Counted from the first letter of the stretch, positions 2,318 to 20,996 are shown. The stretch is 32,000 nucleotides of DNA from Candidatus Pelagibacter ubique HTCC1062 (GCF_000012345.1 NC_007205.1:1276760-1308759), one strand, 5' to 3'. Notes: generated by a model not told the origin, from the sequence alone. Numbers and translations are program-made.

Positions 2318-2321
2318 ATTA

Positions 2322-4586: not shown

Positions 4587-4590
4587 TTTT

Positions 4591-5448
4591 TTGACTGTCA
4601 GACATTATTTTTTAGTTTTATTTATCATGTTTCTTTTTGGTAGTTCTTATCCAATTAATAAACTTGCATTAAACACATCCCTCACCCCTGTATTGGCAGC
4701 CTCATTGAGAATGTTTATACTTTTTGTTTGTCTTGTTCCTTTTTGTAAATTTAAAATCCCAAACAAAAAATACTATCTGCCTTTAGCAGGTTTTTCTTTT
4801 TCAATGGGCTTTGGTGTTTTTATTTTTTTAAATTTATCTCTGCAAAAAGCAACTATGGTTGCTCCTATAATTATTGGAGCTCAACTAGCAATACCCTTTG
4901 CAATTCTGGCAAGCTCTTTATTTTTAGGTGAAAAGGTAACTCCTAAAATGTGGGTATTAATATTTATTTCTTTTTTTGGAATTTTTTTAATTGGTTATGA
5001 TCCAAATTTAAAAAGTGAAATTTTTGCAATTTTTCTTTGTGCAATTTCTGCTTTTTTCTATGGTGTTGCGAATGTGTTTTCTAGATATATTAAAGATATA
5101 GATGTTAAATTAACCAACACAGTTATGGGCTTTACTGGTTTTATACTGCTTTTTCTTTTTTCCATTTTTTTTGAAGGAAACACAGTTTATCAATTACTAA
5201 ATATTGATTTTTATACTTGGCTTTTATTACTCCATAATGGGGTGATGGTTTCTGTAATTGCACACACTTCATTATTTTATTTATATAAATTTTATTCAGT
5301 AAATAAAATTATGCCCTTTTATTCTTTATTTCCAGTATTTGGCCTAATCCTAACGTTCTTTATATTCGGAGAAATCCCAACTCTACTTAGTGCGATTGGT
5401 GGTTTAATTATAATATTTTCTGTATATAGGCTTCAAAAAATTAGATAA
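4591..5448 (+). CDS. EamA/DMT-superfamily membrane transporter
   Basis: 285-aa highly hydrophobic ORF with about 10 predicted TM segments and two EamA-like halves. The start is TTG at 4591, and an in-frame ATG lies at 4627. The first TM segment begins before that ATG, so the TTG is kept. Confidence 0.8.
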   Translation: MTVRHYFLVLFIMFLFGSSYPINKLALNTSLTPVLAASLRMFILFVCLVPFCKFKIPNKKYYLPLAGFSFSMGFGVFIFLNLSLQKATMVAPIIIGAQLAIPFAILASSLFLGEKVTPKMWVLIFISFFGIFLIGYDPNLKSEIFAIFLCAISAFFYGVANVFSRYIKDIDVKLTNTVMGFTGFILLFLFSIFFEGNTVYQLLNIDFYTWLLLLHNGVMVSVIAHTSLFYLYKFYSVNKIMPFYSLFPVFGLILTFFIFGEIPTLLSAIGGLIIIFSVYRLQKIR

Positions 5449-5497
5449 TTCTCCTATTGAAAATTCGTTTAAATAGTCTTTAATTTGATTTTTATAA

Positions 5498-5509
5498 ATT
5501 GTTAACAAT
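5498..5509. promoter_or_regulatory. Perfect 12-bp palindrome ATTGTTAACAAT just upstream of the RBS of the binding-protein gene (candidate operator)
   Basis: Read directly at 5498-5509. It is followed by AAAGAGGAAA (RBS) and ATG 5524. No cognate regulator is present in the window. Confidence 0.3.
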
Positions 5510-5523
5510 CAAAGAGGAAAATA

Positions 5524-6708: not shown

Positions 6709-6728
6709 TTAAAATCTTAATTTTAAAA

Positions 6729-6762
6729 CCCTCAGCAGTGAAAATTGCTGGGGGTTTTTTTT
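6729..6762 (+). terminator. Rho-independent terminator, possibly bidirectional between convergent genes
   Basis: Stem CCCTCAGCA (6729-6737) pairs with TGCTGGGGG (6746-6754) over 9 bp including one G-U. The loop is 8 nt and is followed by T8 (6755-6762). Confidence 0.8.
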
Positions 6763-6764
6763 AT

Positions 6765-7526
6765 TTAAAAATTACTAATAATCCTAAAAAAACCAAATAT
6801 CGAAATTAATATAAGAAAATAAAAAACAACTTTTCTATAAGTTTCCTCTTTGCTTTTAACAAAAAATTTATCACCAATATAAACACCTATTGGTAAAATA
6901 ATAATCAGTGGAATAGTTCTATAAATAGTTGTCAGATCTACAATTCCTGCAAAAAAACTAAGAATAAATGCATAAATATCTGTTAAAAAGAATAAGGCTG
7001 CTAATGAACCTCTAATTACTGCTGGTTGAATACTTGTAACTAATAAAAAAAGTGCCACAGGCATTCCACCTAATGTGGTTAATCCATTTAATGTTCCAGA
7101 GACTATTCCAGTAATAAGCTTTCCATAATTATTATTAATTTTTTTATTCTCATATCCTTTCATTAATAAAAATGAAAAAAATATAACTAATGCGCAAACT
7201 GACAGGTGTGTTGTATCTGGAGATAAATACTTCAATAAATAAAGCCCAATAGGTGACCCAATGATTATTCCTATCAATAATTTTAAAACAAAATTCCAGT
7301 CTATTTTGTTCCATATATATGGAACCATAAAAATACTAATAATAACCTCAAGTATTAGAATAATTGGGACTATCTCTATTGCTGGAAGAATAAAAGAAAA
7401 GCCAGAAATACATATTGCAGAAAAGCCAAAGCCATTAAAACCTCTTATAATAGATGCAATAAATACGGTAAATATTACAAAATAGATTTCAATTAAACTC
7501 AGTTGAAGATTAGATAAAAAATCCAC
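6765..7526 (-). CDS. TauE/SafE (TSUP, DUF81) family anion/sulfite-type exporter
   Basis: 253-aa polytopic membrane ORF with internal duplication-like halves and Gly-rich TM segments (RGFNGFGFS, GTLNGLTTLGGMP). The start is GTG, 1 nt after the upstream MFS stop. Confidence 0.72.
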   Translation of the reverse strand: MDFLSNLQLSLIEIYFVIFTVFIASIIRGFNGFGFSAICISGFSFILPAIEIVPIILILEVIISIFMVPYIWNKIDWNFVLKLLIGIIIGSPIGLYLLKYLSPDTTHLSVCALVIFFSFLLMKGYENKKINNNYGKLITGIVSGTLNGLTTLGGMPVALFLLVTSIQPAVIRGSLAALFFLTDIYAFILSFFAGIVDLTTIYRTIPLIIILPIGVYIGDKFFVKSKEETYRKVVFYFLILISIFGFFRIISNF

Positions 7527-7527
7527 T

Positions 7528-8691
7528 CTATTTCCTTTTTTTAAAGTCTGCTCTTAATGTTGATAAAACAATTATTACTAAAAATATTATACAAACTAAA
7601 TTCATTGTTTTCCAACTTGTTAAGGTTAAAAAAACTCCAGCCGATAAGCTTGCTACTGCCTGAATTGAATAAACAATTAAATCATTAAAGCCTTGTGCTT
7701 TAAATTTTTCATCCTCTCTATAAGATAAAACTAGTAAACTTGTTCCAGATATAAATAAAAAGTTCCAACCAAATCCTAAAAATATTAATGCAATTAAATA
7801 ATTAATAAAATTTTGCTCAAATAAACTAGTCAAAATTGTTATAAAAAATAAAACAACACCAGCGTACATAATTTTACTATGTCCAAATTTTTTTATCAAA
7901 TTACCTGTTATCAATGAAGGTAAAAACATAGCTGCGATATGAAGTTGAATTACAAAACCTGTTTTAGTTAAACTTATTTTTTCCATTACATGCATACTTA
8001 TTGGAGTTGCAGTCATTAAAAATGACATCACTGCATAAGCAAATGCCGAAGCCACTAATGCTTGTAGAAATCTTGGTTGAGAAATTAACTCCAAATAACT
8101 ACGTTTGATTTTCTTGTTAACATGATTGGGTTTATGTCCATCCTCATAAAATAATAGAAAAATTGTTGAAGTAAGAGTTAAAGCAGCAAGCGCAATATAA
8201 GATCCGGCATATAAATGTTCGGCTATAAAACCTTTTGTTATATTAGCAACATTTGGTCCTATAAAAGCCGAACCTATTCCTGCTAATAATATTATTGAAA
8301 TAGCTTTTGGTGCCATATCTTTTTTAACAGTCTCAACTGCTGCAAAACGATATTGATGACTAAAGGCTACTCCTGCACCAAGTAAAAAACATGAAAAATT
8401 AAAAAGGATAAAGCTTTCAATAATTATTGCGTACGCCGCTAGAACAGATGATAAGGAGCTCACTACAGAAGCAAACATAAAGCCTGCTCTTCGACCAATT
8501 ATACTCATAACCTTTGCTGCAAAGATTGCAAAAATTGCAATACCAACAATTGATAAAGCCATCGGTAAAGTTGCTAAAGATTTTACTGGACTAAACTGAG
8601 AGCCAATTATTCCACTTAAGAAAACTGTTACGGGTGCTGCTGTAAAAGCAAAAATTTGACTTAAAATTAGCAGCCATAAATTTTTATTCAT
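7528..8691 (-). CDS. MFS transporter (12-TM)
   Basis: 387-aa hydrophobic ORF. An MFS-like loop (GRRAGFMFA) follows TM2. ATG start. Confidence 0.8.
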   Translation of the reverse strand: MNKNLWLLILSQIFAFTAAPVTVFLSGIIGSQFSPVKSLATLPMALSIVGIAIFAIFAAKVMSIIGRRAGFMFASVVSSLSSVLAAYAIIIESFILFNFSCFLLGAGVAFSHQYRFAAVETVKKDMAPKAISIILLAGIGSAFIGPNVANITKGFIAEHLYAGSYIALAALTLTSTIFLLFYEDGHKPNHVNKKIKRSYLELISQPRFLQALVASAFAYAVMSFLMTATPISMHVMEKISLTKTGFVIQLHIAAMFLPSLITGNLIKKFGHSKIMYAGVVLFFITILTSLFEQNFINYLIALIFLGFGWNFLFISGTSLLVLSYREDEKFKAQGFNDLIVYSIQAVASLSAGVFLTLTSWKTMNLVCIIFLVIIVLSTLRADFKKRK

Positions 8692-8767
8692 TAAAAAATG
8701 TATTTATCACTAAGATAAAGAGCAAAACCTAGAGCCATCCCTAATAAAATATATTTCATAATAAAGT

Positions 8768-10138
8768 TTATTTTATTTCGATTTTTTCAGGAAGTATACC
8801 TTTAGGTCTATACCTCATGATCAACAGAAGACCCATCCCCATCATTAAATATCTAAAGTAAGGAACGCTTTCAATTAAATGAATTTTTAATGAATGTGTA
8901 TCTGCTAAACCTGCTGTAAATAAATTAATCAAGAATAATGCAATTGGCGCTGCCTCAATCCATAGAAACCAGACTGCAAAACCTCCTAAAATTGCTCCAA
9001 AATTATTCCCACTTCCTCCAACAATAACCATAACCCAGATTAAAAAAGTATATCTCATAGGTTGGTAACTACCTGGAGTAAATAAACCATCTTGAGTGAC
9101 TAACATAGCGCCAGCAATTCCAACTATAGCTGAGCCTAAAATAAAGATTAATAAATGTTGCTTGACGACATTTTTTCCCATTGCATTAGCAGCTTCTTCA
9201 TTGTCTCTTATCGCACGCATCATTCTTCCCCATGGAGAGTAAAGAGCTTTTTGAGTTACTATTAACAAGGCTATAACAACAATTAAAAATAAACCTGAAT
9301 AACAAAGTTTTACAAAAACTGATGATCCCTCAATTACTAATTGGTTAAGAGCTGATTGTTTATCAGTAATACTGGAGATTAAATCTAATTTCCCAGAATT
9401 AAATTTTGCAACTAAATTTATAAACCATTCTTTAGTTTGGAGTTCAATTTCATAAGGCACTGGTCGATCCAGTCCAATTACATTTTTAACACCTCTTGTT
9501 AACCAATCTTCATGCTTGATTATGGCTATAACTATTTCTGATATTAGTAGTGTGGCAATAGCTAAATAGTCTGCACGTAAACCTAAAGCAACTTTACCAA
9601 CTATAAATGCTAGACCTGCTGCAAAAAATGCACCTACGATCCAAGAAAACATAATTGGCAATCCTAATCCACCAAGAAATCCTGTTGTTGCTGGGTTAAC
9701 ATTTTCAATAGCTTCAATACTTGTCTCTGATGTAACTCTTATAATTATAATTCCAGCAATAATAATTGTAGCAATACCATAAGTTCTAATTTTAGATTTT
9801 TCAAAATTTTTTAATACAAAACGTATTGCAAGGACCATTGCAACAATTAACCATAAAGACATTAGAATACTAAAACCTCCCGCAACCCATGCTTCTTGTA
9901 CAGGTTCAACAGAAATTAAAACTGCAGCTAATCCACCTAATGCCGCATATCCCATTAGACCAAAATTGATTAACCCTGCATACCCCCATTGAATATTTGC
10001 CCCCATAGTCATTACAGCAGAAATTAAACACATGTTAAAAATTGATAGAGCTACATTCCAAGATTGAAATATTCCAACTAAAATAATAAGCCCCAACATG
10101 ATTGCGTAAGCTATAATTACATTTAAGTGCTTTCTCAC
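8768..10138 (-). CDS. livM: Branched-chain/hydrophobic amino acid ABC permease, LivM-type (module 2)
   Basis: 456-aa ORF with the conserved RAIRDNEEAANAMG block. The GTG start overlaps the livH stop (GTGA). It has about 60 more hydrophilic residues before this block than the paralog at 16907-17959. Confidence 0.85.
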   Translation of the reverse strand: MRKHLNVIIAYAIMLGLIILVGIFQSWNVALSIFNMCLISAVMTMGANIQWGYAGLINFGLMGYAALGGLAAVLISVEPVQEAWVAGGFSILMSLWLIVAMVLAIRFVLKNFEKSKIRTYGIATIIIAGIIIIRVTSETSIEAIENVNPATTGFLGGLGLPIMFSWIVGAFFAAGLAFIVGKVALGLRADYLAIATLLISEIVIAIIKHEDWLTRGVKNVIGLDRPVPYEIELQTKEWFINLVAKFNSGKLDLISSITDKQSALNQLVIEGSSVFVKLCYSGLFLIVVIALLIVTQKALYSPWGRMMRAIRDNEEAANAMGKNVVKQHLLIFILGSAIVGIAGAMLVTQDGLFTPGSYQPMRYTFLIWVMVIVGGSGNNFGAILGGFAVWFLWIEAAPIALFLINLFTAGLADTHSLKIHLIESVPYFRYLMMGMGLLLIMRYRPKGILPEKIEIK

Positions 10139-11145
10139 AGTACCTTCCCTTTGAATATTCCATTAGGTCTATAAAGTAAGACAATCACCAGTATAGAAAA
10201 TGAGACAGCAAATTTATAATCTGTTGATAATAACTGAACTAACGTTTCTGGCTCCATGCTTGCTGGCAAAACATACATAAAGAATTTTTTATAAGCATAA
10301 GTTAGGAATATTTCTGAAAATGCTATGACATATCCTCCTAAAAATGCTCCAAAGGGGTTTCCAATACCTCCAACAATTGCTGCAGCAAAAATTGGCAACA
10401 TGTTATTAAAGTAGGTAAATGGCTTAAAACTTTTGTCCAATCCATATAAAGCTCCACCAATTGTCGCTAAAATTCCTGCAATAATCCAAGTAATCATAAC
10501 TACTCTTTTAGGATCAATTCCAGACAATAAAGCTAAATCCTCATTATCAGAATAAGCACGCATGCTTTTTCCTGTCTTAGTTTTGTTTAAAAACCAAAAT
10601 AAAATAGAAACCAATACAATTGTTACAAATATAGTTAATACCTGACTAGATTTAATTGCTAAACCTTCATTAAGTCCTGTCATTTCTTTAAACTCACTTG
10701 CTTTGATAATAAATTTTTCCCCATCAAAAAACCTCTGATCTGATGGACCGATTATTATTCTAACAACAGCTTGAGTTACAAACATTACACCAATACTAAC
10801 CATTGCAAGTTGAACAGGAGGACTTTTGCTCACTCTATAATATCTAAAAACAAATTTATCAATTAAGAGCATATATCCAATTGTTAAAACAATTGCAAAA
10901 GGGATGGCAAGTAACGCTGTTGGTAAAACACCTAAAGAAATTCCAAGTGATTGAAAATACCAAGTAAATAATATGGTGACCATCGTACCAAAAGCCATCA
11001 TGTCCCCAGTTGCAAAATTAGCAAACCTTAAAATTCCATAAATTAAAGTTACAAATATTGCACCTAGTGCTAGTTGAGAGCCATACGTAAGAGCTGGCAT
11101 AAAAATATAATTTAATAATAATATAATTGCGTTTAAGAATTCCAT
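10135..11145 (-). CDS. livH: Branched-chain/hydrophobic amino acid ABC permease, LivH-type (module 2)
   Basis: The ORF track starts at a GTG (11154). I prefer the in-frame ATG at 11145, which is preceded by AGGTGG plus a 5-nt spacer. Blocks MRAYSDNEDLALLSGI and GGIGNPFGAFLGG are LivH-like. Confidence 0.85.
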   Translation of the reverse strand: MEFLNAIILLLNYIFMPALTYGSQLALGAIFVTLIYGILRFANFATGDMMAFGTMVTILFTWYFQSLGISLGVLPTALLAIPFAIVLTIGYMLLIDKFVFRYYRVSKSPPVQLAMVSIGVMFVTQAVVRIIIGPSDQRFFDGEKFIIKASEFKEMTGLNEGLAIKSSQVLTIFVTIVLVSILFWFLNKTKTGKSMRAYSDNEDLALLSGIDPKRVVMITWIIAGILATIGGALYGLDKSFKPFTYFNNMLPIFAAAIVGGIGNPFGAFLGGYVIAFSEIFLTYAYKKFFMYVLPASMEPETLVQLLSTDYKFAVSFSILVIVLLYRPNGIFKGKVL

Positions 11146-11146
11146 A

Positions 11147-11854
11147 CTATCCACCTAAAAAAGAGCTTCTTACTCTTGGGTCGTTTAATAATTCTTTTCC
11201 TGTTCCTGAATACTTATTTTCACCTGTAACTAGTACATATCCACGATCAGAAATATTAAGCGCTTGTTTAGCATTTTGCTCAACCATTAAAATTGCAACA
11301 TTAGTTCTTTTTACTTTGATGATATGATCAAATAATTCATCCATTACTATTGGAGAAACACCAGCAGTGGGTTCATCTAACATTAATACAGATGGTTTTA
11401 TCATTAATGCTCTTCCAAGAGCCACTTGTTGTCTTTGACCTCCAGATAATTCACCAACTAATTGGTTTCTTTTTTCTCTAAGTATTGGAAATAGTTCATA
11501 AATTTCTTCTATAATATTTTGATAATTGTCATCTCTTAAATAAGCTCCCATCTCTAAATTTTCTTCAACACTCATTCCAGAAAATACATTTTTTGTCTGT
11601 GGTACAAATGAAATACCTTCTCTCACCCTATCTTGTGGTGAAAGTTTTGAAATATCTTTGCCATCAATTATAACTGAACCAGATTTTAAATTTAAAAGAC
11701 CAAGCATTGCTTTCATGGCTGTTGATTTACCAGCACCATTAGGTCCAAGAATTGAAACTATTTCGCCTCTGTTTACATTAACTGAACAAGAGTTGATGAT
11801 ATCAGGTCCATTACCATAACCACCTGTCATTTTTAAACCTTCAAAAAAAGCCAT
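11147..11854 (-). CDS. livF: ABC transporter ATP-binding protein, LivF-type (module 2)
   Basis: Walker A is GPNGAGKST, the signature is LSGGQRQ and Walker B is LMLDEP. The start overlaps the livG stop by 1 nt. Confidence 0.9.
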   Translation of the reverse strand: MAFFEGLKMTGGYGNGPDIINSCSVNVNRGEIVSILGPNGAGKSTAMKAMLGLLNLKSGSVIIDGKDISKLSPQDRVREGISFVPQTKNVFSGMSVEENLEMGAYLRDDNYQNIIEEIYELFPILREKRNQLVGELSGGQRQQVALGRALMIKPSVLMLDEPTAGVSPIVMDELFDHIIKVKRTNVAILMVEQNAKQALNISDRGYVLVTGENKYSGTGKELLNDPRVRSSFLGG

Positions 11855-12648
11855 TAGTTCTCATCCTTTATCTTTGATCCTCTGCCTAAATAGCTTTCTA
11901 TAACTTTTTCATCTTTCTTAGCTTCTTCAGCGGTCCCTTCAAATAAAACTGAACCTTCTGCCATAACAATAACAGGGTTACATAATCTACTTATAAACTC
12001 CATATCATGTTCGATCATACAGAATGTATAACCTTCTTCCTTATTTAACTTAAGAATAGCAGTTCCTAAATCTTTAAGCAGTGTTCTATTAACACCAGCA
12101 CCTACTTCATCAAGTAATACTAATTTTGCATCAACCATCATGGTTCTTCCAAGTTCTAATAATTTTTTTTGGCCTCCAGATAAATTCCCAGCTAATTCAT
12201 TTGATAAATGAGTCAGATTTAAAAAATCAACTACGTCTTGGGCTTTTTGTTTAACTTTAAGTTCTTCCGTTCTAACTAAACTTGGTTTTAATAAAGCAGT
12301 CATTAAATTTTCACCTGACTGATTTGCAGGAACCATCATTAAATTTTCAAGCACAGAAAGATTAGTAAACTCATGTGCTATTTGAAAAGTTCTTAAAATT
12401 CCTTTAGAAAATAATTCATATGAAGGAACGTCAGTAACATCCTCATTATTAAACAATACTTTTCCTTGTGAGGATTTTAAATTTCCAGCTATTAGATTGA
12501 ACAAGGTGGTCTTGCCTGAGCCGTTAGGTCCTATAATTCCTGTAATAGAGCCTTTCTTAATCTTTAATGAACAATCTGACACTGCAGCCAAACCTCCAAA
12601 ATATTTAGATAGATTTTCAATTTGTAAGATGTTCTGTTCTTGATCCAT
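11854..12648 (-). CDS. livG: ABC transporter ATP-binding protein, LivG-type (module 2)
   Basis: Walker A is GPNGSGKTT, the signature is LSGGQKK and Walker B is LVLLDEV (Val where Pro is usual). The C-terminal VIESYLG tail is typical of LivG. Confidence 0.9.
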   Translation of the reverse strand: MDQEQNILQIENLSKYFGGLAAVSDCSLKIKKGSITGIIGPNGSGKTTLFNLIAGNLKSSQGKVLFNNEDVTDVPSYELFSKGILRTFQIAHEFTNLSVLENLMMVPANQSGENLMTALLKPSLVRTEELKVKQKAQDVVDFLNLTHLSNELAGNLSGGQKKLLELGRTMMVDAKLVLLDEVGAGVNRTLLKDLGTAILKLNKEEGYTFCMIEHDMEFISRLCNPVIVMAEGSVLFEGTAEEAKKDEKVIESYLGRGSKIKDEN

Positions 12649-12653
12649 GAAAT

Positions 12654-13421
12654 TTATTTATTTAATCTTCTATGTATACTGTTGAGTGTCTTTTCTAAAG
12701 ATTTATAAAAACCTGCTCTGCTTAATTCTTTAACTCCTTGTTCATTCAATCCTTTAGGTGTTTGAGACTCTTTTACTAAAAATTTTAAATCTTTTTTAGA
12801 GTTTACAACTGCATCTTCTGATAATGCTAAAAATAAAGATGTTATATATTTTTGTGCATTATTTCGTTTAACTCCTCTTTTCACTAACCAGTCTGTCATT
12901 ACTCTTAGTAATTCATAAAAGGGTGCCATCATTCCAGAGGTTGACCAAAAATTGATTGAAGATTTTTCATTTTTAATTTCAACGGTTGTGCCAATTTTAT
13001 TAAAAAAATCTTTAACTTTTTTATTGGGTGGACAAATGGGTACTGGTCCTTTTTTTAAAGATATAGGAGGTAATGGTATCGCTCTTATAATTTTTGCTTT
13101 AACTTTGATTGCTTTTTTAAGTTGAGCTAAAGTAATTGTTGATATGAAACTAATTACAGTTTGATTTGATCTAAACTTTAAATTTTTAATAATTTTTTCA
13201 CCCACTGCTGGAGTTACTGATAAAAATATCCAATCACAAGAATTAATAATTTCCTGGTTATCTTTACTAACAGTTATCTTTTTAAACTTTTTTTTTAAAA
13301 TACTAGATGTAGATTTATTTCTCTCAGAGATGATTATTTTGTTATACGAAATACTGGAACTGCAAATACCAGTGATAACGGCAGACGTAATTTTACCTGT
13401 TCCTATAAAGCCTAATTTCAT
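12654..13421 (-). CDS. Pyrroline-5-carboxylate reductase family NAD(P)H oxidoreductase (divergent, ProC-like)
   Basis: 255-aa ORF. It has an N-terminal Rossmann motif GFIGTGKI. The C-terminal ESQTPKGLNEQG occupies the place of the P5CR (S/T)PGGTT block. Overall it is a divergent member. Confidence 0.65.
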   Translation of the reverse strand: MKLGFIGTGKITSAVITGICSSSISYNKIIISERNKSTSSILKKKFKKITVSKDNQEIINSCDWIFLSVTPAVGEKIIKNLKFRSNQTVISFISTITLAQLKKAIKVKAKIIRAIPLPPISLKKGPVPICPPNKKVKDFFNKIGTTVEIKNEKSSINFWSTSGMMAPFYELLRVMTDWLVKRGVKRNNAQKYITSLFLALSEDAVVNSKKDLKFLVKESQTPKGLNEQGVKELSRAGFYKSLEKTLNSIHRRLNK

Positions 13422-13453
13422 AAATATAGTTACTTTATAGTGATATTAGTGAA

Positions 13454-14365
13454 TTAATTAATAAAAAAAGAACCTCTAATTCTCAATAGTTCTCTGCTTA
13501 AATCTTTATTTTCTTTGAAAGGTTTTCTTCCGTGTAACCAAAAATAATTATTAGCCACAATGGTTGATCCAGGTACTAATTTAGTGATTACTTTGTTCTT
13601 ACTCTCCTCTAAAGCATCTGATAATTTTTGTAAGAAAATTCCTTGATCCATATTTTTTGGTTCAGGGAATTGATCAATATAAGAAATATTTGGCTTACCG
13701 TTATCATCTGTTGTGAAAACTGGATGTTCAACTTTATATTCTATATTTTTACTTTTAGGAGACCCCCATACAAAATTTTGTTTTCCAATGGGGTCATTGA
13801 ATAAATCCTCACAATGTTCCCAGTCATCAAGATGCAACATTGCTGTTTCTCCTCCTTGGACATTTTGTTCTTCAATTTTAGTCATCAAAAGCCAATCTGT
13901 GATCTCTTTAACATATGTCCCATCCGTATGAAGATCCATATTTGTGTAAGCTTTTCTTAAGTACGAGTCACTTTTATCTTCATGCTTTACAAAAAATCTT
14001 GCATAATATTTTCCAGCCATGGCATCATAATTTGGATTACCAATTAAATAGGCAATTGCTGTTGATAGCTTTACTAAAAAGATATCATTAATTTTTGCAC
14101 TTACTTTTTTTGGTCCAATTATAAAACAACCTGTTTCTCTATCTCTTACTATTGAATTAAGTAATTTGCTTAATTTATTAGAAGTTAAATCATCTAAACT
14201 TTTAGCAATAGTAAATCTGGTAAATGGTTTGTACTCTAAGGCAGTGATATCAAATTTATTGAATGGAAATATTAATTTATCTAAAATTTCATCTTCAATT
14301 CTAATGTCAATTATTCTTTTTGAATTTTGATGTTCTGTTATTGTTATTCCAGAGATATTTTCCAT
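13454..14365 (-). CDS. csiD: CsiD/GlaH-family Fe(II)/2-oxoglutarate-dependent hydroxylase (glutarate 2-hydroxylase-like)
   Basis: 303-aa ORF. Long blocks agree with my recollection of E. coli CsiD: ALEYKPFTRFTIAK, YDAMAGKYYARFFVKHEDKSDSYLR, DLHTDGTYVKEITDW, EQNVQGGETAMLHLDDWEH, YIDQF, FWLHGR and RELLRIRGSFF. The HxD...H iron triad is present. Confidence 0.85.
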   Translation of the reverse strand: MENISGITITEHQNSKRIIDIRIEDEILDKLIFPFNKFDITALEYKPFTRFTIAKSLDDLTSNKLSKLLNSIVRDRETGCFIIGPKKVSAKINDIFLVKLSTAIAYLIGNPNYDAMAGKYYARFFVKHEDKSDSYLRKAYTNMDLHTDGTYVKEITDWLLMTKIEEQNVQGGETAMLHLDDWEHCEDLFNDPIGKQNFVWGSPKSKNIEYKVEHPVFTTDDNGKPNISYIDQFPEPKNMDQGIFLQKLSDALEESKNKVITKLVPGSTIVANNYFWLHGRKPFKENKDLSRELLRIRGSFFIN

Positions 14366-14688
14366 TAGAAATAATTACTTAGTACCGCCATCATGATAGC
14401 AGAAATAACAGTAGGATAAACAAAATTTCTTTTAGATATAAAAAATATAAATAAACAAAATAAAACAACAGTTACTCTACTTAAGTAACTAGCATCAGAC
14501 AAAACACCTACTGGAAATATAATTGTTCTTGCTATTAATGCGGCTAGTGTTGAGTAGGCAAGACAATTAAACCATTTAAATAATTTTGAAGTTTCTTTTA
14601 TTCCTTGTGAAGAAATTGCACCTAAAAACCTTGAAGAGAAAGTTGCAAGGGACGTGACTAAGATTGCAAGAAATACACTAGTTGACAT
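14365..14688 (-). CDS. azlD: AzlD-family branched-chain amino acid exporter small subunit
   Basis: 107-aa ORF with 3-4 TM segments, immediately downstream of and overlapping azlC by 11 nt. Its stop overlaps the csiD-like start. Confidence 0.8.
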   Translation of the reverse strand: MSTSVFLAILVTSLATFSSRFLGAISSQGIKETSKLFKWFNCLAYSTLAALIARTIIFPVGVLSDASYLSRVTVVLFCLFIFFISKRNFVYPTVISAIMMAVLSNYF

Positions 14689-15382
14689 TTAGCTCTCCTA
14701 TAAAATAAGCAATTGTTCCACCAACAAGTCCTCCCAATAAAATTGACCACTCTGGAGATAGAAAATAAAAAATTGGTCCTAATACCAAGCCTAAAATTAC
14801 TGCAGCTGTAATTTGAATAGTTTTCATTGCCCCAACCATCATGCATAAAAAATAAATTGGGTTTAAAATTGCTAAGCCCATCATCATATTTTTATCCAAA
14901 TAATCAGATGCGTAAAATCCTATAAAAGTTCCTATTACCGCTGTAGTCCAAGTAGCACAACCAATTCCAATCCAAAAATCAATTCTATGTTTTTTTTCAA
15001 TACTTTTATAGTTACTCTTCATAATCAGCCATGCAGATACTGCTATAAAATGACATGAAAAGTAATATTTCCATTTTGGTTGGCTTTTGTGCATCATTAA
15101 TGGAAACAAAGAAACAGCCATTGGATAAAGACGAGCATTAACAAACCAAACAGCTAAAAAAATATTTAATAATGAAGCTCCAACTAATAACGACTCTGCC
15201 ATAACTAATGATCCAGGCAAAGCATAAGTAAGCATAGTTGAAAAAATACTTTCTTGAATATTAAATCCTAAATTTTTAAGAAGTGCCCCAATTGCTATAA
15301 AACAACATCCAAGTGCAAGGGCTGGGCTATCTGGAGCTAAAATAGATTTGAAACCTTTAAAGAAAAATTCTTTATTAATCAT
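14678..15382 (-). CDS. azlC: AzlC-family branched-chain amino acid exporter large subunit
   Basis: 234-aa polytopic membrane ORF. The size and the pairing with an AzlD-like ORF are characteristic. Confidence 0.8.
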   Translation of the reverse strand: MINKEFFFKGFKSILAPDSPALALGCCFIAIGALLKNLGFNIQESIFSTMLTYALPGSLVMAESLLVGASLLNIFLAVWFVNARLYPMAVSLFPLMMHKSQPKWKYYFSCHFIAVSAWLIMKSNYKSIEKKHRIDFWIGIGCATWTTAVIGTFIGFYASDYLDKNMMMGLAILNPIYFLCMMVGAMKTIQITAAVILGLVLGPIFYFLSPEWSILLGGLVGGTIAYFIGELNVN

Positions 15383-16167
15383 TAACCACCAAGGAATAAT
15401 CTACCAACGTCAGGATTTTTTAATAAATCGTCCCCTTTGCCAGCAATAGCAGTTTGTCCTGATACTAAAACATAACCTATATCAGCAAACTCTAATCCTT
15501 TTTTAGCATTTTGTTCCACTAGGATAATAGTTTTCTTTTCTGTTTGTTGAAGGTCTCTTAATATTTCAAAAACCATATCTATATATCTCGGTTCTAAACC
15601 AATTGAAGGTTCATCAACAAGTAATACAGAAGGTTTCATAACTAGTGCTCTAGAAATTTCTAATAATCTTCTTTCCCCACCAGATAAAACTTTTGCAGGT
15701 TGGTTTCTTCTGTTTCTTAATCTTTCATATTTTTCAAAAATTCTTTCAGCTTCTTGATAAGATTCGTCTGTGTTTTCTTTAGTATAACCACCCATTAGTA
15801 AATTTTCTTCAACCGTCATATCTGGAAAGACTGAATTATCTTGTAAGATATATGCTATTCCACACGACTTAAGTTTTTCTGCTGGGGTTAGATGCGTAAT
15901 TTCTTTACCATCAATTTCTATTTGCCCTGAAAAGATATTTGTAAATCCATAAATAGAGTGAAGAATTGTAGATTTTCCAGCACCATTTGGACCAATTAAA
16001 CATAGAGATTGAGCTTTACTTACACACAAATCAAAATCATGTAGAATTTCCATCTTACCATAACCAGCAGATAAATTTTTAATCGTTACATGGTTATTGT
16101 CTGGAGATAGTTTTTTTAATTCTTCAGGTCCTGGTGCTTTTCCTAATACATCATATTGATTTGACAT
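15382..16167 (-). CDS. livF: ABC transporter ATP-binding protein, LivF-type (module 1)
   Basis: Walker A is GPNGAGKST, the signature is LSGGERR and Walker B is LLVDEP. It has an N-terminal extension of about 27 aa relative to the module 2 paralog. Confidence 0.9.
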   Translation of the reverse strand: MSNQYDVLGKAPGPEELKKLSPDNNHVTIKNLSAGYGKMEILHDFDLCVSKAQSLCLIGPNGAGKSTILHSIYGFTNIFSGQIEIDGKEITHLTPAEKLKSCGIAYILQDNSVFPDMTVEENLLMGGYTKENTDESYQEAERIFEKYERLRNRRNQPAKVLSGGERRLLEISRALVMKPSVLLVDEPSIGLEPRYIDMVFEILRDLQQTEKKTIILVEQNAKKGLEFADIGYVLVSGQTAIAGKGDDLLKNPDVGRLFLGG

Positions 16168-16907
16168 TATTGTGCTCCCAAGTAAGCGTCTAGCACACGC
16201 TTATCATTTTTAATTTCATCTGGAGTTCCGTTTGCCAACATTTGACCATGTGCTAAACAAAAAACTCTTTGTGCTAAATTCATAATTACTTTCATATTAT
16301 GCTCTATAACTAACAGGGTAATCCCATAATCTTTATTAACACTAATTAAACGATCAATAATTCCATTAATTAATGTTGGATTAATTCCAGCTGTTGGCTC
16401 ATCTAACAAGAGCATTTTGGGCTCATTCATTAATGCCATTGCTAGTTCTAATAATTTTTGCTGACCAAAAGAAAGATCTCCTGCTCTAAGTTTTCTTTTT
16501 TGATGAAGTCCTACAAACTTTAATAATGTTTCTGCTTTATCAGTTAAACCTGAAGGTATTTTTTGGAAAACTGTTAAAATTCCATCATTTTCAGGTTTGT
16601 GGCTGATTAGCATATTTTGAATACAGTTTAATTTTCCATAAATTCGGGTTTGTTGAAAAGTTCTAAGTAATCCAAGTTTAGCAATAACAGGTACTGGTAA
16701 CTCAGAGACTTCTCTGTTGTTAAATTTAATTGAACCCCCATCAATTGGATAAGTTCCAACTATTGAGTTAAATAAAGTAGTTTTTCCAGAACCATTTGGC
16801 CCAATTAATCCAACTATTGAACCTTGTTCAACTGACATAGAGATATCTACGTTGGCTTTAACACCGCCAAAAGATTTACTTACATTTGATATATCTAATA
16901 TAGCCAT
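16167..16907 (-). CDS. livG: ABC transporter ATP-binding protein, LivG-type (module 1)
   Basis: Walker A is GPNGSGKTT, the signature is LSFGQQK and Walker B is LLLDEP. It has a C-terminal VLDAYLG tail. Confidence 0.9.
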   Translation of the reverse strand: MAILDISNVSKSFGGVKANVDISMSVEQGSIVGLIGPNGSGKTTLFNSIVGTYPIDGGSIKFNNREVSELPVPVIAKLGLLRTFQQTRIYGKLNCIQNMLISHKPENDGILTVFQKIPSGLTDKAETLLKFVGLHQKRKLRAGDLSFGQQKLLELAMALMNEPKMLLLDEPTAGINPTLINGIIDRLISVNKDYGITLLVIEHNMKVIMNLAQRVFCLAHGQMLANGTPDEIKNDKRVLDAYLGAQ

Positions 16908-17959
16908 TATTTTAATTCTACCTGTGCTTTTCGGTCAGCTTCATCAATTACTTCTCCAAATCTTTCAGGATATTTCTCTCTTAACCATCCCATTAAACCT
17001 TCAGGAAAATAAACAACGATTACAATAATTAAAACTCCAAGAGCTACATACTGCCATCCTAAAAAGTAAGTCCAAAATCCTTCTTTAAATAAATGAAATA
17101 AAACAGCACCAACTAGTGGTCCCCATAAAGTTCCTTTACCACCAAGAATTGCCATTAACACCATAAACACTCCAAATGTAGGTCCAGCAAATGCAATTTC
17201 ATTAGGTTCAATGTAACCATTAATATGACCCATTAGTCCTCCTGCAATTCCAACAAAGAACGCTGATACCATCCAACCTATAATTTTATACCTCATAGTG
17301 TGAATGCCCATTGCTTCAGCTTTATCTTCGTTATCTCTTATTGCATTTAAAATTAATCCAAATCTTGTACTGTAGGCCCACTTTAAAGTAATAAAAGTTA
17401 TAACTGCTAAACCAAAACTTAAATAGTACATAAACTGTGATGATGATGCGTTAGATCCTAAATCTTTTGGCCAAACAGGAACCGTCATACCTTGTCCTGC
17501 TCCAATAATTTCAATTCCACCTGCAATTTCGCCAGCAGCAATTCCTAAAGCTAAAGTACAAATTGCAAAGTAATGCCCTCTTAAACCTAAAATTCCATAA
17601 CCAATTACTCCTGCAATTATTGTTGGAATAATTCCTGCTAACAATATTCCAACTCCAAACCCTTGAAAAAATTGTGGAACCGTATGAACAAAAGTTTTTT
17701 CTCCACCAGCATCCGTCCACTCAGCTAATGAAAAAAACATTGCTATTTGTGTACTTGAAGCAACATACATTCCAACTCCAAAAAATAAAATATTTCCAAA
17801 TGTATTGTAGCCCATTTGTCCACCTTGAACGTCCCAAGTCATCGCAAGAACGATTAAAATATAAAGAAACGACATCTGAAGTTTGTAAGCAGGAAATATA
17901 AATGCACCAGCTAAGCCAAAAATTATTAGACCCATGTATAAAAGAGTATTTTTATTCAT
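16907..17959 (-). CDS. livM: Branched-chain/hydrophobic amino acid ABC permease, LivM-type (module 1)
   Basis: 350-aa membrane ORF with an NAIRDNEDKAEAMG block. It shares 1-nt stop/start overlaps with both neighbours. Confidence 0.88.
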   Translation of the reverse strand: MNKNTLLYMGLIIFGLAGAFIFPAYKLQMSFLYILIVLAMTWDVQGGQMGYNTFGNILFFGVGMYVASSTQIAMFFSLAEWTDAGGEKTFVHTVPQFFQGFGVGILLAGIIPTIIAGVIGYGILGLRGHYFAICTLALGIAAGEIAGGIEIIGAGQGMTVPVWPKDLGSNASSSQFMYYLSFGLAVITFITLKWAYSTRFGLILNAIRDNEDKAEAMGIHTMRYKIIGWMVSAFFVGIAGGLMGHINGYIEPNEIAFAGPTFGVFMVLMAILGGKGTLWGPLVGAVLFHLFKEGFWTYFLGWQYVALGVLIIVIVVYFPEGLMGWLREKYPERFGEVIDEADRKAQVELK

Positions 17960-18852
17960 TATTTTAGATATTCTCTTTTTCTTGATAATTTAAATCTTCT
18001 GTAAACAAGAATTAATACGAGTAGCGAGAATACAGCTGCTATTCTAAATTCTGTTCCAAGTAGATAATCTGCCCATTCTTCAAATATACCAAGACCCATA
18101 CCAGATATTGCAACAGCTGGTAAATTTCCAAGTCCAGCAATGATTACAATCATGAATGATCTTACCGTGTAAGGTAATCCTGTGTATGGATGAAGTGTAA
18201 ATGTGATCGCAACACAAGCTCCTGCTATTCCACATAATGCTGCATTTATTCCAAATGTTGCAGCATAAACTTTTTCTGTATCTACACCTAAAATTTTAGC
18301 AGCTCTTGCATTTTGTGCGGTTGCTCTAATTGCTCTACCTAATTTTGATTTTCTCATATAGATCACCAAAATAAATGCAGATATGACACAAACAGCTCCT
18401 GAAAATAACTTAGCATTAGGAATTGTAACCATATCGTTAAATAACATTGTTGTTCCAAAATCTGATTGAGCAACAACTACGTCTGCGCCAAATGCAAAAT
18501 TCATTAACTGTTGTGCTAAAATACTAATTCCAAAAGTTGCAAGAATTGATGTAAATAAATCTTTATCTACCACTTTATTAATAACCAGCTTGTACATTCC
18601 CCATCCAACACAATACATTACAATTGGAGATACAATTATACCAAAGGCTGGATGAATACCTGAGAGATACATAAAGTAAGCAATGTAACCACCCATAATT
18701 ACTAATTCTCCTTGAGCAATGTTTATTATATTCATTACTCCCCACTGCAGAGCCATTCCATAAGCAATTAATGCAAATAAAATACCTAGAAGTATTCCAT
18801 CCATTGAGGCTTGGACCATTAGTATTGGTGCTTGAAAAATTAGAAAATCCAT
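17959..18852 (-). CDS. livH: Branched-chain/hydrophobic amino acid ABC permease, LivH-type (module 1)
   Basis: 297-aa membrane ORF with blocks RAIRATAQNARAAKILGV and IIAGLGNL. Confidence 0.88.
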   Translation of the reverse strand: MDFLIFQAPILMVQASMDGILLGILFALIAYGMALQWGVMNIINIAQGELVIMGGYIAYFMYLSGIHPAFGIIVSPIVMYCVGWGMYKLVINKVVDKDLFTSILATFGISILAQQLMNFAFGADVVVAQSDFGTTMLFNDMVTIPNAKLFSGAVCVISAFILVIYMRKSKLGRAIRATAQNARAAKILGVDTEKVYAATFGINAALCGIAGACVAITFTLHPYTGLPYTVRSFMIVIIAGLGNLPAVAISGMGLGIFEEWADYLLGTEFRIAAVFSLLVLILVYRRFKLSRKREYLK

Positions 18853-18871
18853 AAATTATTTAAATGTTTAT

Positions 18872-18901
18872 AAAAAAATGCCCCCTATTTCTAGGGAGCA
18901 T
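18872..18901 (-). terminator. Intra-operon hairpin plus U-tract (partial terminator/attenuator) between the binding-protein gene and the permease genes
   Basis: The minus-strand RNA reads AUGCUCCCU-AGAAAU-AGGGGGCAU followed by U7. The stem is 9 bp with one G-U. Confidence 0.7.
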
Positions 18902-18916
18902 TTTACATATTAGGTA

Positions 18917-20158
18917 TTATCTTTTTGACCAAGATGGAATTGGGTGTACCAACTCAGCTGATGCCCATTTTGTAGGAGCAACAACTTTGTTTTCACACTT
19001 ACTACCATCATCGTTACATGATACTTGGAAAAGTACCATTGGTTTTGATACGTTCTGCCCACCTTCTGCAAATTTTATGTTCCCATAAAAAGTTTGCATA
19101 TCAGTTGCAGCTAAAGCGTCTCTAACTTTTTTAGTGTCAAATGATTGCGCTCTTTCGAATGCATCTTTAAATACTAATAAAGCAGCTGACGACTCTGCAG
19201 CTTGGTATGGCGGTGCATAACCAAATGCTTTTGTAAAATCTGCATCATAGGTAGTTCCATCTTTAAAGAAATCATCTTTGTAAGATAATGATTTATGCCA
19301 TTGAGAAGCACAAAGTGCATACTCAGAAGCTTTACCATGCATCTTAGATAATTTAGCGGCATCACAGTGAGTCATTGCTAACATAGGAACATCAACTTTC
19401 ATTTCTGAAATTTGCCTAACAGCTGTTAAAGCTCCTTTTGTGTGACCTGAAACCACAAGAACATCTGGTTTTACAGCTTTTACTTTAGATAAAGTAGCAG
19501 CCATATCATTAAGTTCTTTCGGTAACTTGTCATCAATTATGATTTTAGAACCTGTTCTTTTAGCAGCATCAAGAATACCTAATCTCACATCTTGAGAGAA
19601 AGCATCTTGTTCAAATGCCATTGCAATCTTAACTGGTTTTCCACCGTTTTTTTCAACTGCAAGATCAATTGCTACATCAAGATATAAGTTCGCAGGAGCT
19701 AGTACTGCAAATAAATATTTATAACCCTTAGTGAATAACGATCTAGACGCACCGTTTGCTTCAACCATAGGAATTCCATATTTTTCAGTTACAGGAGCCA
19801 TAGCTTTAGTCAAACCTGAGCTATAAGGCCCAAGCATGTATTGAACACCATCTTGTTGAATTAATCTTTCTGCAAGTTGTGCTGCCCTTCCAGAGTTTGA
19901 CTCGTCATCGTAATAAATGATTTCAAACTTGTAAGTTTTTCCACCAACCTTAATACCACCCATGTCATTTATTCTGTCAACTGCTAAGTTATAGCCGTTT
20001 TGAGTATGAACACCATTTGATGAGTATTTTCCAGTCAATGAAATAGCTGCACCTAAAATAATTTTATCCCCAACAACCTTCGCGAAAGATATTGTTGAAG
20101 CTGAAATTAAAAGAGCAATTGCAGAAACTAAAGTAATAATTATATTTCTGATTTTCAT
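18917..20158 (-). CDS. Periplasmic substrate-binding protein, Leu/Ile/Val-binding (type I PBP) family, secreted (module 1)
   Basis: 413-aa ORF with signal peptide MKIRNIIITLVSAIALLISASTISFA/KV. It is the first gene of the long minus-strand unit, with RBS AGAGGGAAAT upstream. Confidence 0.88.
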   Translation of the reverse strand: MKIRNIIITLVSAIALLISASTISFAKVVGDKIILGAAISLTGKYSSNGVHTQNGYNLAVDRINDMGGIKVGGKTYKFEIIYYDDESNSGRAAQLAERLIQQDGVQYMLGPYSSGLTKAMAPVTEKYGIPMVEANGASRSLFTKGYKYLFAVLAPANLYLDVAIDLAVEKNGGKPVKIAMAFEQDAFSQDVRLGILDAAKRTGSKIIIDDKLPKELNDMAATLSKVKAVKPDVLVVSGHTKGALTAVRQISEMKVDVPMLAMTHCDAAKLSKMHGKASEYALCASQWHKSLSYKDDFFKDGTTYDADFTKAFGYAPPYQAAESSAALLVFKDAFERAQSFDTKKVRDALAATDMQTFYGNIKFAEGGQNVSKPMVLFQVSCNDDGSKCENKVVAPTKWASAELVHPIPSWSKR

Positions 20159-20248: not shown

Positions 20249-20863
20249 CTAATAGTTTTGAATAAATGCTATGATTAAAGCGATTAATATCAATACACAC
20301 GCTGAAATTGTATTAATAACTTTTGGGTTTGCTTTTATCCAAACAATTAATTTTCTAGCAAGAACAGCATAAGCAATTAAAGATAAAAAATCTAAAACTG
20401 CATATGTTGTAATTAAAATTATAAATTGGACAATATAATTTGAATTAAAATCTATAAACTGTGGGAATATTAAAGGAAAAAACATCCAAGCTTTTGGACT
20501 TGTTCCTGCAACTAAAAAACCATCTTTAAAAAAAGAAAAAAAGCTTTTTGACGAAATATTATTTGAATTTATATCTTTTGGTCTTGAATTATAAATATCA
20601 TAAGCAAGATAAAGTAAGTAAGCTATACCAATCCACTTAAAAGTATTTAGAAAGTTTGGATTATCGACAAAAAAAGATCCTAAAACAAAAATTACTAATG
20701 TTGCTTGAATAATATTTGCTGTAACATCTCCAAGAGCTGTCCAGATACATTTTTGAACTCCATAATTCATGGAATATGAAATGATTACAATTCTAGGTGT
20801 ACCAGGAGTGATAAATAAAAATAAAATAATCTGTAAAAAAAGAAAATAATTTAAGGGAAGCAT
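20249..20863 (-). CDS. LysE/RhtB-family amino acid exporter
   Basis: The track ORF begins at a TTG (20884). The in-frame ATG at 20863 places the family's (S/T)PG motif (ITPGTP) at residues 18-23, as in RhtB/LysE proteins. About 6 TM segments. Confidence 0.8.
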   Translation of the reverse strand: MLPLNYFLFLQIILFLFITPGTPRIVIISYSMNYGVQKCIWTALGDVTANIIQATLVIFVLGSFFVDNPNFLNTFKWIGIAYLLYLAYDIYNSRPKDINSNNISSKSFFSFFKDGFLVAGTSPKAWMFFPLIFPQFIDFNSNYIVQFIILITTYAVLDFLSLIAYAVLARKLIVWIKANPKVINTISACVLILIALIIAFIQNY

Positions 20864-20937
20864 TTTGTTGTTTGGATAGTCCAAAAAAACCGGGAGCTAA
20901 AGATGGCTAAGATGGACTATCTAAGTTTGAAGATACC
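20864..20937 (-). promoter_or_regulatory. Candidate structured 5' leader of the LysE-family gene, with mutually exclusive hairpins
   Basis: In the minus-strand RNA, GAUAGUCC (plus-strand coordinates 20914-20921) can pair perfectly with GGACUAUC (20875-20882), which lies 11-18 nt upstream of the ATG. Alternatively, the overlapping AGAUAGUCC (20914-20922) can pair with the upstream GGUAUCU (20931-20937). The 31-nt loop holds a tandem CCAUCUU(U)AG repeat and a U7 run. Confidence 0.3.
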
Positions 20938-20996
20938 ATGACCTTAAATAAAATGCATTAATCAATTTTTTTAAATATAATGAAAATAAAGGATTT

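Follow-up and report, generated by a model that had tools for sequence, protein, structure and literature searches.

A run of 13 co-directional genes near the end of the Candidatus Pelagibacter ubique HTCC1062 genome (SAR11_1349 to SAR11_1361) encodes two ATP-binding cassette (ABC) translocators of the Liv type and, between them, the AzlCD transporter pair, the glutarate 2-hydroxylase GlaH and an oxidoreductase resembling pyrroline-5-carboxylate reductase (P5CR). We analyzed this block within the final 32 kb of the HTCC1062 genome (the window, 32,000 nucleotides, to which coordinates refer unless a contig is named). The block is quite probably a composite “super-operon” of three layers (module 1, a central cassette and module 2) rather than a pathway for a single substrate, with the P5CR-like gene most likely encoding ProC. 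Module 1, composed of the periplasmic substrate-binding protein SBP1 and LivH-M-G-F-type subunits, would be a high-affinity ABC importer of C4/C5 dicarboxylates, and module 2, composed of LivG-F-H-M and a 22-aa membrane mini-protein, would import amino acids as a separate LIV-type system with a second binding protein, SBP2. The central cassette (azlC-azlD-[slot]-P5CR-like) would be inherited as a unit of its own, its slot holding glaH in HTCC1062 and most Pelagibacter and a small outer-membrane protein (OMP)-like gene in another Pelagibacteraceae lineage. GlaH would turn imported glutarate, 2-oxoglutarate (2OG) and O2 into L-2-hydroxyglutarate (L-2HG), succinate and CO2, a reaction for which the literature provides in vitro data.

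Central cassette and variable slot

To compare the block among relatives, we scanned a genome collection with a diverse GlaH alignment, keeping one genome per species. The best 80 loci were all from Pelagibacter, such that the synteny described here is within-genus, and their GlaH proteins were 79-95% identical to that of the window. The order of the 13 genes (SBP-livH-livM-livG-livF-azlC-azlD-glaH-P5CR-like-livG-livF-livH-livM) was kept in every one of these loci whose contig extends far enough. The flanks were variable, with an MFS transporter gene in 53 of the 80 loci and a TauE gene in 10.

Loci without glaH came from contigs found for a P5CR-like representative of 59% identity (P0242), which yielded 30 SAR11-type metagenomic loci and one unrelated weak match (L118, 21% identity); two contigs from single-cell genomes were added by a later look-up. 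In 27 of the 30 loci, and in the single-cell genome contig L120, the order was LysE-SBP1-HMGF-azlCD-[OMP-like]-P5CR-like-GFHM-<SBP2, with glaH absent and the slot occupied by a gene for a ~215-aa protein that has a signal peptide and a C-terminal KSF or KAF. This protein gave a weak match to OMP_b-brl (outer-membrane beta-barrel, E = 8e-4) and may act as a small channel in the outer membrane that is linked to the importer. One locus, L110, holds both glaH and the OMP-like gene. Thus, glaH appears to be optional cargo in a variable slot (glaH, glaH plus OMP-like, or OMP-like alone) of a conserved frame.

Comparison of L120 with HTCC1062 pointed to a distinct history for the whole cassette. The flanking genes were 75-86% identical, which is usual for another Pelagibacter species (judged by the medians of the 80 loci), whereas azlC, azlD and the P5CR-like gene were only 67%, 59% and 57% identical, respectively. 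Positions 8055-10771 of L120 thus represent, relative to 12654-15382 of the window, a deeply diverged allele of the cassette with sharp limits at livF1/azlC and P5CR-like/livG2 (numerals 1 and 2 denote the modules). Because the cassette is far more diverged than its flanks, azlC through the P5CR-like gene appear to have been inherited separately, and the pattern suggests that the central cassette was replaced by recombination.

AzlCD seems to belong to the frame rather than to the cargo: azlCD lies directly 3′ of livF1 and is kept when glaH is absent, although in one locus, L026, a hydrolase gene replaces it. Both window proteins score above their Pfam cutoffs and are clear members of the AzlC and AzlD families. 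The window AzlC is far below the threshold for equivalence to Bacillus subtilis AzlC (TIGR00346, 26.6 bits versus a cutoff of 332). We regard AzlCD as a putative two-component transporter of the LIV-E family with no specific tie to GlaH or glutarate.

Three loci had further peculiarities. L026 (single-cell genome AG-404-C04) carries a dienelactone-hydrolase-family gene in place of azlCD, a PhyH-family 2OG dioxygenase gene between livH1 and livM1, and a 346-aa ORF (open reading frame) without a Pfam match between glaH and the P5CR-like gene. In L099, a gene for a secreted pentapeptide-repeat protein accompanies the OMP-like gene. L002 (positions 1-10912 of a JGI metagenome contig) contains livM-livG-livF-azlC-azlD-glaH twice in tandem, with fragmented gene calls downstream; the duplication may be real, or it may be an artefact of long-read assembly.

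Two importer modules

Corresponding subunits of modules 1 and 2 are 23% (LivH), 31% (LivM, partial alignment), 40% (LivG) and 41% (LivF) identical, and SBP1 and SBP2 are 27% identical over a partial alignment; judged from sequence, the two translocators appear to be old paralogues and not the result of a recent duplication. In every genome examined, each binding protein adjoins one module. Most simply, SBP1 and module 1 would form a dicarboxylate importer, and SBP2 and module 2 a LIV-type amino-acid importer.

The published ligands of the binding proteins agree with this division. SBP1 (SAR11_1361) binds C4/C5 dicarboxylates with a Kd of <10 nM, succinate co-purifies with it, and binding of glutarate was determined by differential scanning fluorimetry (Clifton et al. 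2024, PMC11485210); earlier proteomic and transcriptomic work found SBP1 to be responsive to nitrogen and sulfur limitation. For SBP2 (SAR11_1346), a close homologue has a broad specificity for branched-chain amino acids (Clifton et al. 2024, PMC11485210). We pair SBP2 with module 2 because of their adjacency; in loci without the MFS and TauE genes, SBP2 stands tail-to-tail with livM2 (and the mini-ORF described below).

Alternatively, the translocators could be shared, with either SBP docking on either translocator or module 2 serving SBP1 as well, in which case the block would be one broad organic-acid/amino-acid uptake system. Several SBPs acting on one translocator do occur in other ABC systems, both SBPs here are Peripla_BP_6 proteins, both translocators are of the HAAT type, and the co-directional block contains one SBP only. 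However, identities of ~23-31% between the permeases and 27% (partial) between the SBPs argue for distinct docking surfaces, and the constant adjacency of each SBP to one module also speaks against sharing, to which we give very little credence.

Two features of the module 1 genes concern annotation. The best NCBIfam match of livH1 is UrtB/LivH, under the equivalog cutoffs. Relatives cover the full length of the 261-aa form of LivF1, which RefSeq also uses, and the LivF profile alignment begins at residue 26, indicating that the original livF1 start-codon call was too far downstream. The 113-nt “intergenic region” at 16054-16166, between SAR11_1357 (designated livF2) and SAR11_1358 (designated livG2), which was a structured-RNA candidate in Meyer et al. 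(2009), in fact belongs to the livF1 ORF, of which it is the 5′ end.

Module 2 differs in having an additional small gene. Directly 3′ of livM2 is an unannotated 22-codon ORF encoding a hydrophobic peptide; it occupies the 76-nt gap between livM2 and the MFS gene, and its stop codon overlaps the MFS ATG. The peptide (MKYIILGAAxAWAxYxADKYxF) was kept in all 52 loci with the MFS gene and in 13 of 17 without it, the spacing from livM2 was constant (8-10 nt), and its only record is an anonymous IMG gene call. Probably, the ORF encodes a small membrane protein with a single helix that is attached to module 2. LivM2 itself is unusually long: its residues 31-392 map to positions 3-242 of the 269-position BPD_transp_2 profile, corresponding to an insertion of ~100 aa, and the 456-aa length is kept in relatives.

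GlaH and the fate of its product

SAR11_1354 matched the CsiD family (PF08943) with 487.9 bits over the entire profile (1-294 of 294), the GlaH equivalog (NF002814) with 477.6 bits versus a cutoff of 333, and the solved Escherichia coli CsiD structures in the PDB with E = 6e-86. In E. coli numbering, the Fe(II) triad is His160/Asp162/His292, Arg309 binds 2OG, and Arg311 and Gly163 bind glutarate (Knorr et al. 2018). All six residues are present in SAR11 GlaH (H146, D148, H278, R295, R297 and G149; an offset of 14) and form invariant columns in the GlaH alignment. Consistent with these assignments, SAR11_1354, which is 41.5% identical to E. coli csiD, converts glutarate and 2OG to 2-hydroxyglutarate and succinate, as determined by 1H nuclear magnetic resonance (Clifton et al. 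2024, PMC11485210).

Since GlaH provides no net carbon gain without re-oxidation of L-2HG, the identity of the re-oxidizing enzyme matters, and the candidate that has been proposed now looks unlikely (see below). No member of the LhgO or FMN_dh families was found among the scanned window ORFs of at least 84 aa, and the window contains no aminotransferase gene and no GntR or LysR regulator gene. We considered a DAO-family protein (23774-25015) as a hidden LhgO and rejected it, as it gave weak D-amino-acid-dehydrogenase matches below the cutoff and a partial match of 26 bits to a real LhgO. An aldehyde dehydrogenase gene (3105-4586, plus strand) is below all equivalog cutoffs and is part of a different, divergent cluster.

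The P5CR-like gene

SAR11_1353, the last gene of the cassette, is called proC in the annotation and is listed among core SAR11 genes in the literature. Its product contains a Rossmann domain (PF03807, 49.9 bits) and a dimerization domain (PF14748, 39.3 bits), both above their cutoffs, and matches NF005063 with 348.6 bits versus a cutoff of 254 (positions 1-255 of 258). It falls under the canonical proC equivalog (TIGR00112, 101.8 bits versus 196.75), and Pfam identified no DAO, FAD or flavin domain in it. The closest solved structures are all P5CRs. An exhaustive search of representatives found the SAR11 subfamily to be compact: identity drops from 71% and 59% for its representatives to ≤40% for the following ones.

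Clifton et al. (2024, PMC11485210) called SAR11_1353 an “FAD-dependent oxidoreductase” and a possible oxidizer of L-2-hydroxyglutarate; their protein was insoluble. The FAD-dependent label (Extended Data Fig. 9 legend, PMC11485210) is at odds with the sequence, which is that of an NAD(P)-type P5CR-family protein, and the Pfam name “F420_oxidored” may be the source of the confusion. In their suggestion, SAR11_1353 would oxidize L-2HG to 2OG as a non-orthologous replacement of LhgO, such that, with GlaH, glutarate would be converted to succinate. The gene begins 32 nt after glaH, the position occupied by lhgO in Vibrio and by a gene for an FMN alpha-hydroxy-acid oxidase in Paraburkholderia and Cupriavidus (three plasmid loci), and the window lacks an LhgO-like gene. 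In addition, the substrate loop reads TPKGLN, with a basic residue, rather than SPGGTT as in canonical ProC, and the score below the TIGR00112 cutoff would also fit an enzyme other than ProC.

Several lines of evidence nevertheless make this suggestion unlikely. The P5CR-like gene stands in the same place in the lineage without glaH, and its motifs (GFIGTG, IPLPP, GP.PI.PPN, FW..S.MMAP.YE and SQTP[KRN]GLNEQ) are the same in glaH+ and glaH- versions. In addition, glaH and the P5CR-like gene are not neighbours in L026 and L110, where another gene intervenes. The altered loop is common to rhizobial PRK06476 members with no glaH nearby; we rejected it as a sign of a new substrate, as the whole PRK06476 family has it, including both glaH+ and glaH- versions. 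NAD(P)+-linked oxidation of 2-hydroxy acids is, moreover, thermodynamically unfavourable. Finally, the enzymes known to oxidize L-2HG are quinone- or O2-coupled flavoproteins (Knorr 2018), whereas SAR11_1353, with its NAD(P) Rossmann and P5CR dimerization domains, is not a flavoprotein.

We therefore lean, with some reservation, toward SAR11_1353 being a housekeeping ProC, the cell's pyrroline-5-carboxylate reductase, with some other reductase role a less likely alternative. Persistence of the gene with unchanged motifs where glaH is absent makes ProC likelier than an L-2HG dehydrogenase, and the Sinorhizobium meliloti pSymB member of the family, SMb20003, is reportedly functionally redundant with proC. 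It is improbable that SAR11_1353 and its relatives in glaH-carrying Pelagibacter, perhaps besides a role as ProC, constitute an NAD(P)-linked L-2HG dehydrogenase of the P5CR fold that replaces LhgO. If they did, the ultra-high-affinity dicarboxylate importer, GlaH and this enzyme would together allow the ocean's most abundant bacterium to convert glutarate to succinate by a complete route that needs no flavin, and the azlCD-slot-P5CR cassette would act as an exchangeable metabolic cartridge lying between the two importers.

One system or three layers

A preliminary description of this DNA had presented all 13 genes as one dedicated uptake-and-conversion module for lysine, pipecolate, 5-aminovalerate or glutarate, with AzlCD exporting the product. 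The genes are indeed co-directional and tightly packed, their order is kept in 80 Pelagibacter species, azlC through the P5CR-like gene behave as one inherited cassette, and lysine/pipecolate catabolism includes members of both the GlaH and the P5CR families. GlaH has a role in lysine catabolism (Knorr 2018). Yet the two SBPs have different published ligands (dicarboxylates versus branched-chain amino acids), the modules are just 23-41% identical, and glaH is dispensable in an otherwise intact frame. Tight junctions are as frequent between unrelated genes of the window, and Pfam and NCBIfam scans of the block found none of the davAB, davDT, gabDT, amaAB or dpkA-type genes of the lysine, 5-aminovalerate and pipecolate routes; Clifton et al. 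(2024, PMC11485210) likewise found the remainder of the lysine pathway missing. The published SBP specificities largely refute the single-substrate model already, and we consider it highly unlikely, including its link to lysine and pipecolate. Other parts of that description fared better. The block is conserved in relatives, the “dicarboxylate-like” substrate predicted for the first importer matches the published SAR11_1361 ligands, and the CsiD-like enzyme is, by the sequence tests and by the experiments of Clifton et al. (2024), a genuine glutarate 2-hydroxylase, such that the guess of glutarate was right and had already been tested.

Gene packing provides little guidance in choosing between these readings. 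Neighbouring genes share a single nucleotide at 17959, 16907, 16167, 15382, 14365 and 11854, azlC and azlD overlap by 11 nt (14678-14688), and livH2 and livM2 overlap by 4 nt (10135-10138); gaps of 64, 32 and 5 nt separate SBP1 from livH1, glaH from the P5CR-like gene, and the P5CR-like gene from livG2, respectively. Reading of the sequence at livF2/livH2 (TAG at 11149-11147, t at 11146, ATG at 11145-11143) revealed a gap of 1 nt when livH2 starts with the ATG at 11145, which is the start in relatives (336 aa); the longest ORF begins with a GTG at 11154. Junctions of ≤5 nt make up 10 of the 12 inside the block and 13 of the 15 same-strand junctions elsewhere in the window, where some of them join unrelated genes (e.g., those for a DAO-family oxidoreductase, an EamA transporter, a 2-hydroxyacid dehydrogenase and MsrB). 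Because packing is tight window-wide, also between unrelated genes, stop/start overlaps alone are no sign of a functional unit. The co-direction and overlaps reflect SAR11 genome streamlining, and caution is warranted in streamlined genomes generally, where stop/start overlaps do not imply shared function.

The ORF list of the window (13 minus-strand ORFs, 8768-20158) and the Pfam and NCBIfam assignments reproduced the gene order and families of the preliminary description, as well as the differing order of the two modules (H-M-G-F versus G-F-H-M). Its junction values were all right (the 1 nt at 11146 with the livH2 ATG at 11145), and the hairpin that it placed in the 64-nt gap is there, at about -19 kcal/mol and followed by a T-run. 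Its statement that only the first module has a binding protein was incomplete, as a second Peripla_BP_6 SBP lies two genes past livM2.

Some considerations weigh against the three-layer reading. Both pairings of an SBP with a translocator rest on adjacency, with co-transcription and attenuation likewise inferred. Changed selection, instead of separate inheritance, could also account for the excess divergence of the cassette, and the lineage lacking glaH at this locus might carry it elsewhere in the genome. P5CR homologues and L-2HG oxidases were surveyed within the window, and SAR11_1353 is a putative sole P5CR homologue. In addition, an L-2HG-oxidizing enzyme always follows glaH in the three plasmid loci, making the P5CR-like gene a legitimate positional candidate; as the best 80 loci were all from Pelagibacter, the cross-phylum pattern of glaH neighbours rests on those three.

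SAR11 bacteria rank as the most abundant heterotrophs of the surface ocean, and what they import and catabolize therefore shapes marine carbon cycling. In the three-layer reading, glutarate use would be an optional, swappable trait in a conserved transporter frame, which is relevant when metagenomes are read.

Transcription signals and neighbouring genes

In 66 of 66 Pelagibacter loci, SBP1 was followed by the hairpin and at least five consecutive T residues. Base pairing in the stem is preserved although its sequence differs, indicating a genuine intrinsic terminator or attenuator. Hairpins after the SBP gene of ABC operons commonly yield an excess of SBP mRNA, and this one would probably cause an excess of the SBP1 transcript with partial read-through into the downstream genes. 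The only strong terminator nearby is the bidirectional one between the convergent TauE and SBP2 genes. A scan for sigma-70 promoters was uninformative in this AT-rich DNA (55 sites versus 79 in shuffled controls).

Upstream of SBP1, a gene for a LysE/RhtB-family exporter (SAR11_1362) was conserved in 59 loci. Loci that seemed to lack it were considered as places where the rhtB RNA element might directly precede SBP1, but they were merely truncated at the edge of the locus. The rhtB element lies between SAR11_1362 (rhtB) and SAR11_1363, and metagenomes also contain the motif upstream of proC, livM and livK (Meyer et al. 2009; their intergenic coordinates convert to window positions with a constant offset of 1,276,759). 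The element may form the 5′ boundary of the co-directional string or have a regulatory role in it, and with the rhtB element and LysE upstream and the strong terminator after TauE, this string may run from LysE to TauE. The lower stem of the element is an inverted repeat that could be a protein-binding site.

Beside SBP2, a packed plus-strand cluster (564-5448) encodes a luciferase-like monooxygenase, an AA_synth protein (PF06684), an alpha/beta hydrolase, an aldehyde dehydrogenase and an EamA transporter. Three of these genes (AA_synth, hydrolase and Aldedh) are likewise conserved beside SBP2 in locus L119, and the cluster could be a catabolic route for a substrate imported nearby.

Table 1. 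Positions of the genes and signals discussed, in window coordinates or, where a locus is named, in those of that locus.
Feature	Position	Strand	Basis or remark
SBP1, SAR11_1361 (livJ2), periplasmic binding protein	18917-20158	-	Pfam Peripla_BP_6, 172 bits
Intrinsic terminator/attenuator hairpin and T-run after SBP1	18869-18904	-	Terminator scan; minimum free energy -19.2 kcal/mol
livH-type permease, module 1, SAR11_1360	17959-18852	-	Pfam BPD_transp_2, 117 bits
livM-type permease, module 1, SAR11_1359	16907-17959	-	Pfam BPD_transp_2, 95 bits
livG-type ATPase, module 1, SAR11_1358	16167-16907	-	ABC_tran and BCA_ABC_TP_C tail
livF-type ATPase, module 1, SAR11_1357, 261 aa	15382-16167	-	ABC_tran
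AzlC, SAR11_1356, opens central cassette	14678-15382	-	Pfam AzlC (PF03591), 79.2 bits
AzlD, SAR11_1355	14365-14688	-	Pfam AzlD (PF05437), 51.6 bits
GlaH/CsiD glutarate 2-hydroxylase, SAR11_1354, in variable slot	13454-14365	-	Pfam CsiD (PF08943), NCBIfam GlaH
P5CR-like NAD(P) oxidoreductase, PRK06476 family, SAR11_1353, annotated proC, ends central cassette	12654-13421	-	F420_oxidored and P5CR_dimer
livG-type ATPase, module 2, SAR11_1352	11854-12648	-	ABC_tran and BCA_ABC_TP_C
livF-type ATPase, module 2, SAR11_1351	11147-11854	-	ABC_tran, 118 bits
livH-type permease, module 2, SAR11_1350	10135-11145	-	BPD_transp_2, 122 bits
livM-type permease, module 2, SAR11_1349, 456 aa	8768-10138	-	BPD_transp_2, 94 bits
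Unannotated 22-codon ORF, hydrophobic peptide MKYILLGMALGFALYLSDKYIF	8691-8759	-	Directly 3′ of livM2
MFS transporter, SAR11_1348, variable insert	7528-8691	-	Pfam MFS_1
TauE/SafE-family exporter, SAR11_1347, variable insert	6765-7526	-	Pfam TauE
Bidirectional intrinsic terminator, 15-bp stem AAAACCCTCAGCAG...CTGCTGGGGGTTTT, flanking A and T runs	6725-6758	.	Terminator scan
SBP2, SAR11_1346	5524-6708	+	Pfam Peripla_BP_6; exact HTCC1062 protein
LysE/RhtB-family exporter, SAR11_1362, 90 nt upstream of SBP1	20249-20884	-	Pfam LysE, 79 bits
rhtB RNA element (Rfam RF01814), LysE/RhtB leader	20857-20939	-	cmscan, 90 bits versus gathering threshold 55, E = 3e-17
OMP-like/secreted slot genes	L093 2210-2881; L099 3966-4472 and 4633-5277; L088 247-885; L110 2302-2976; L120 9278-9922
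Genes of the remodelled block in L026	L026 2453-3280, 5856-7001, 7931-8971

Comparison with known systems

Both modules resemble HAAT importers (LivJ/K-HMGF and UrtABCDE; TC 3.A.1.4) in having two BPD_transp_2 permeases, a LivG-type ATPase (with a BCA_ABC_TP_C tail) and a LivF-type ATPase. A Peripla_BP_6 binding protein is also present for both, although that of module 2 is on the opposite strand and its functional pairing is drawn from position. None of the subunits reached the LivHMGF or UrtBCDE equivalog level (e.g., LivG, 211 versus a cutoff of 362; UrtB, 155 versus 250; LivH, 102 versus 379; LivF, 186 versus 441). The modules differ from these importers in that SBP1 binds dicarboxylates rather than amino acids (Clifton 2024), gene order is unlike between the two modules, and module 2 has the extra 22-aa ORF and the 456-aa LivM.

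AzlCD, YgaZH and BrnFE (LIV-E) are two-component branched-chain amino-acid exporters. The SAR11 locus has the same AzlC and AzlD pair encoded by overlapping genes, but its pair is embedded right after an ABC ATPase gene and is far from B. subtilis AzlC. The P5CR-like protein is 35% identical to rhizobial PRK06476-type P5CRs (e.g., the S. meliloti pSymB copy), with which it has the T-x-x-G-L-N-E-Q loop in common. The rhizobial copies are isolated and lie beside LysR regulators, whereas the SAR11 copy is fixed between azlCD or the slot and livG2.

With the csiD(glaH)-lhgO-gabDTP branch of E. coli and Pseudomonas (Knorr 2018), the SAR11 locus shares the GlaH enzyme, and both systems have a link to carbon starvation. 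Unlike that branch, the SAR11 locus lacks lhgO, gabD/T/P, and a CsiR or LysR regulator, its glutarate comes from outside via an ABC importer instead of being made from lysine, and its glaH is located in a variable slot between transporter modules.

The closest comparison is with the locus described by Clifton et al. (2024, Nature 634:721), SAR11_1346-SAR11_1361, as the DNA is identical. Proteins match exactly (AAZ22156.1 is UniProt Q4FKY2, AAZ22157.1 is Q4FKY1, and SBP1 is AAZ22164.1), and positions 5524-20158 of the window (14,635 bp) are the span drawn in their Extended Data Fig. 9b. The core biology, high-affinity C4/C5 dicarboxylate uptake and a glutarate hydroxylase, was therefore already known. 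AzlCD, the variable slot, the mini-ORF and the post-SBP terminator are not discussed there, and what we add is the variable slot with its apparently separately inherited cassette, evidence that speaks against the enzyme proposed in print to oxidize L-2HG, the 22-aa ORF and the post-SBP1 terminator. These details refine a known system rather than define a new kind of system.

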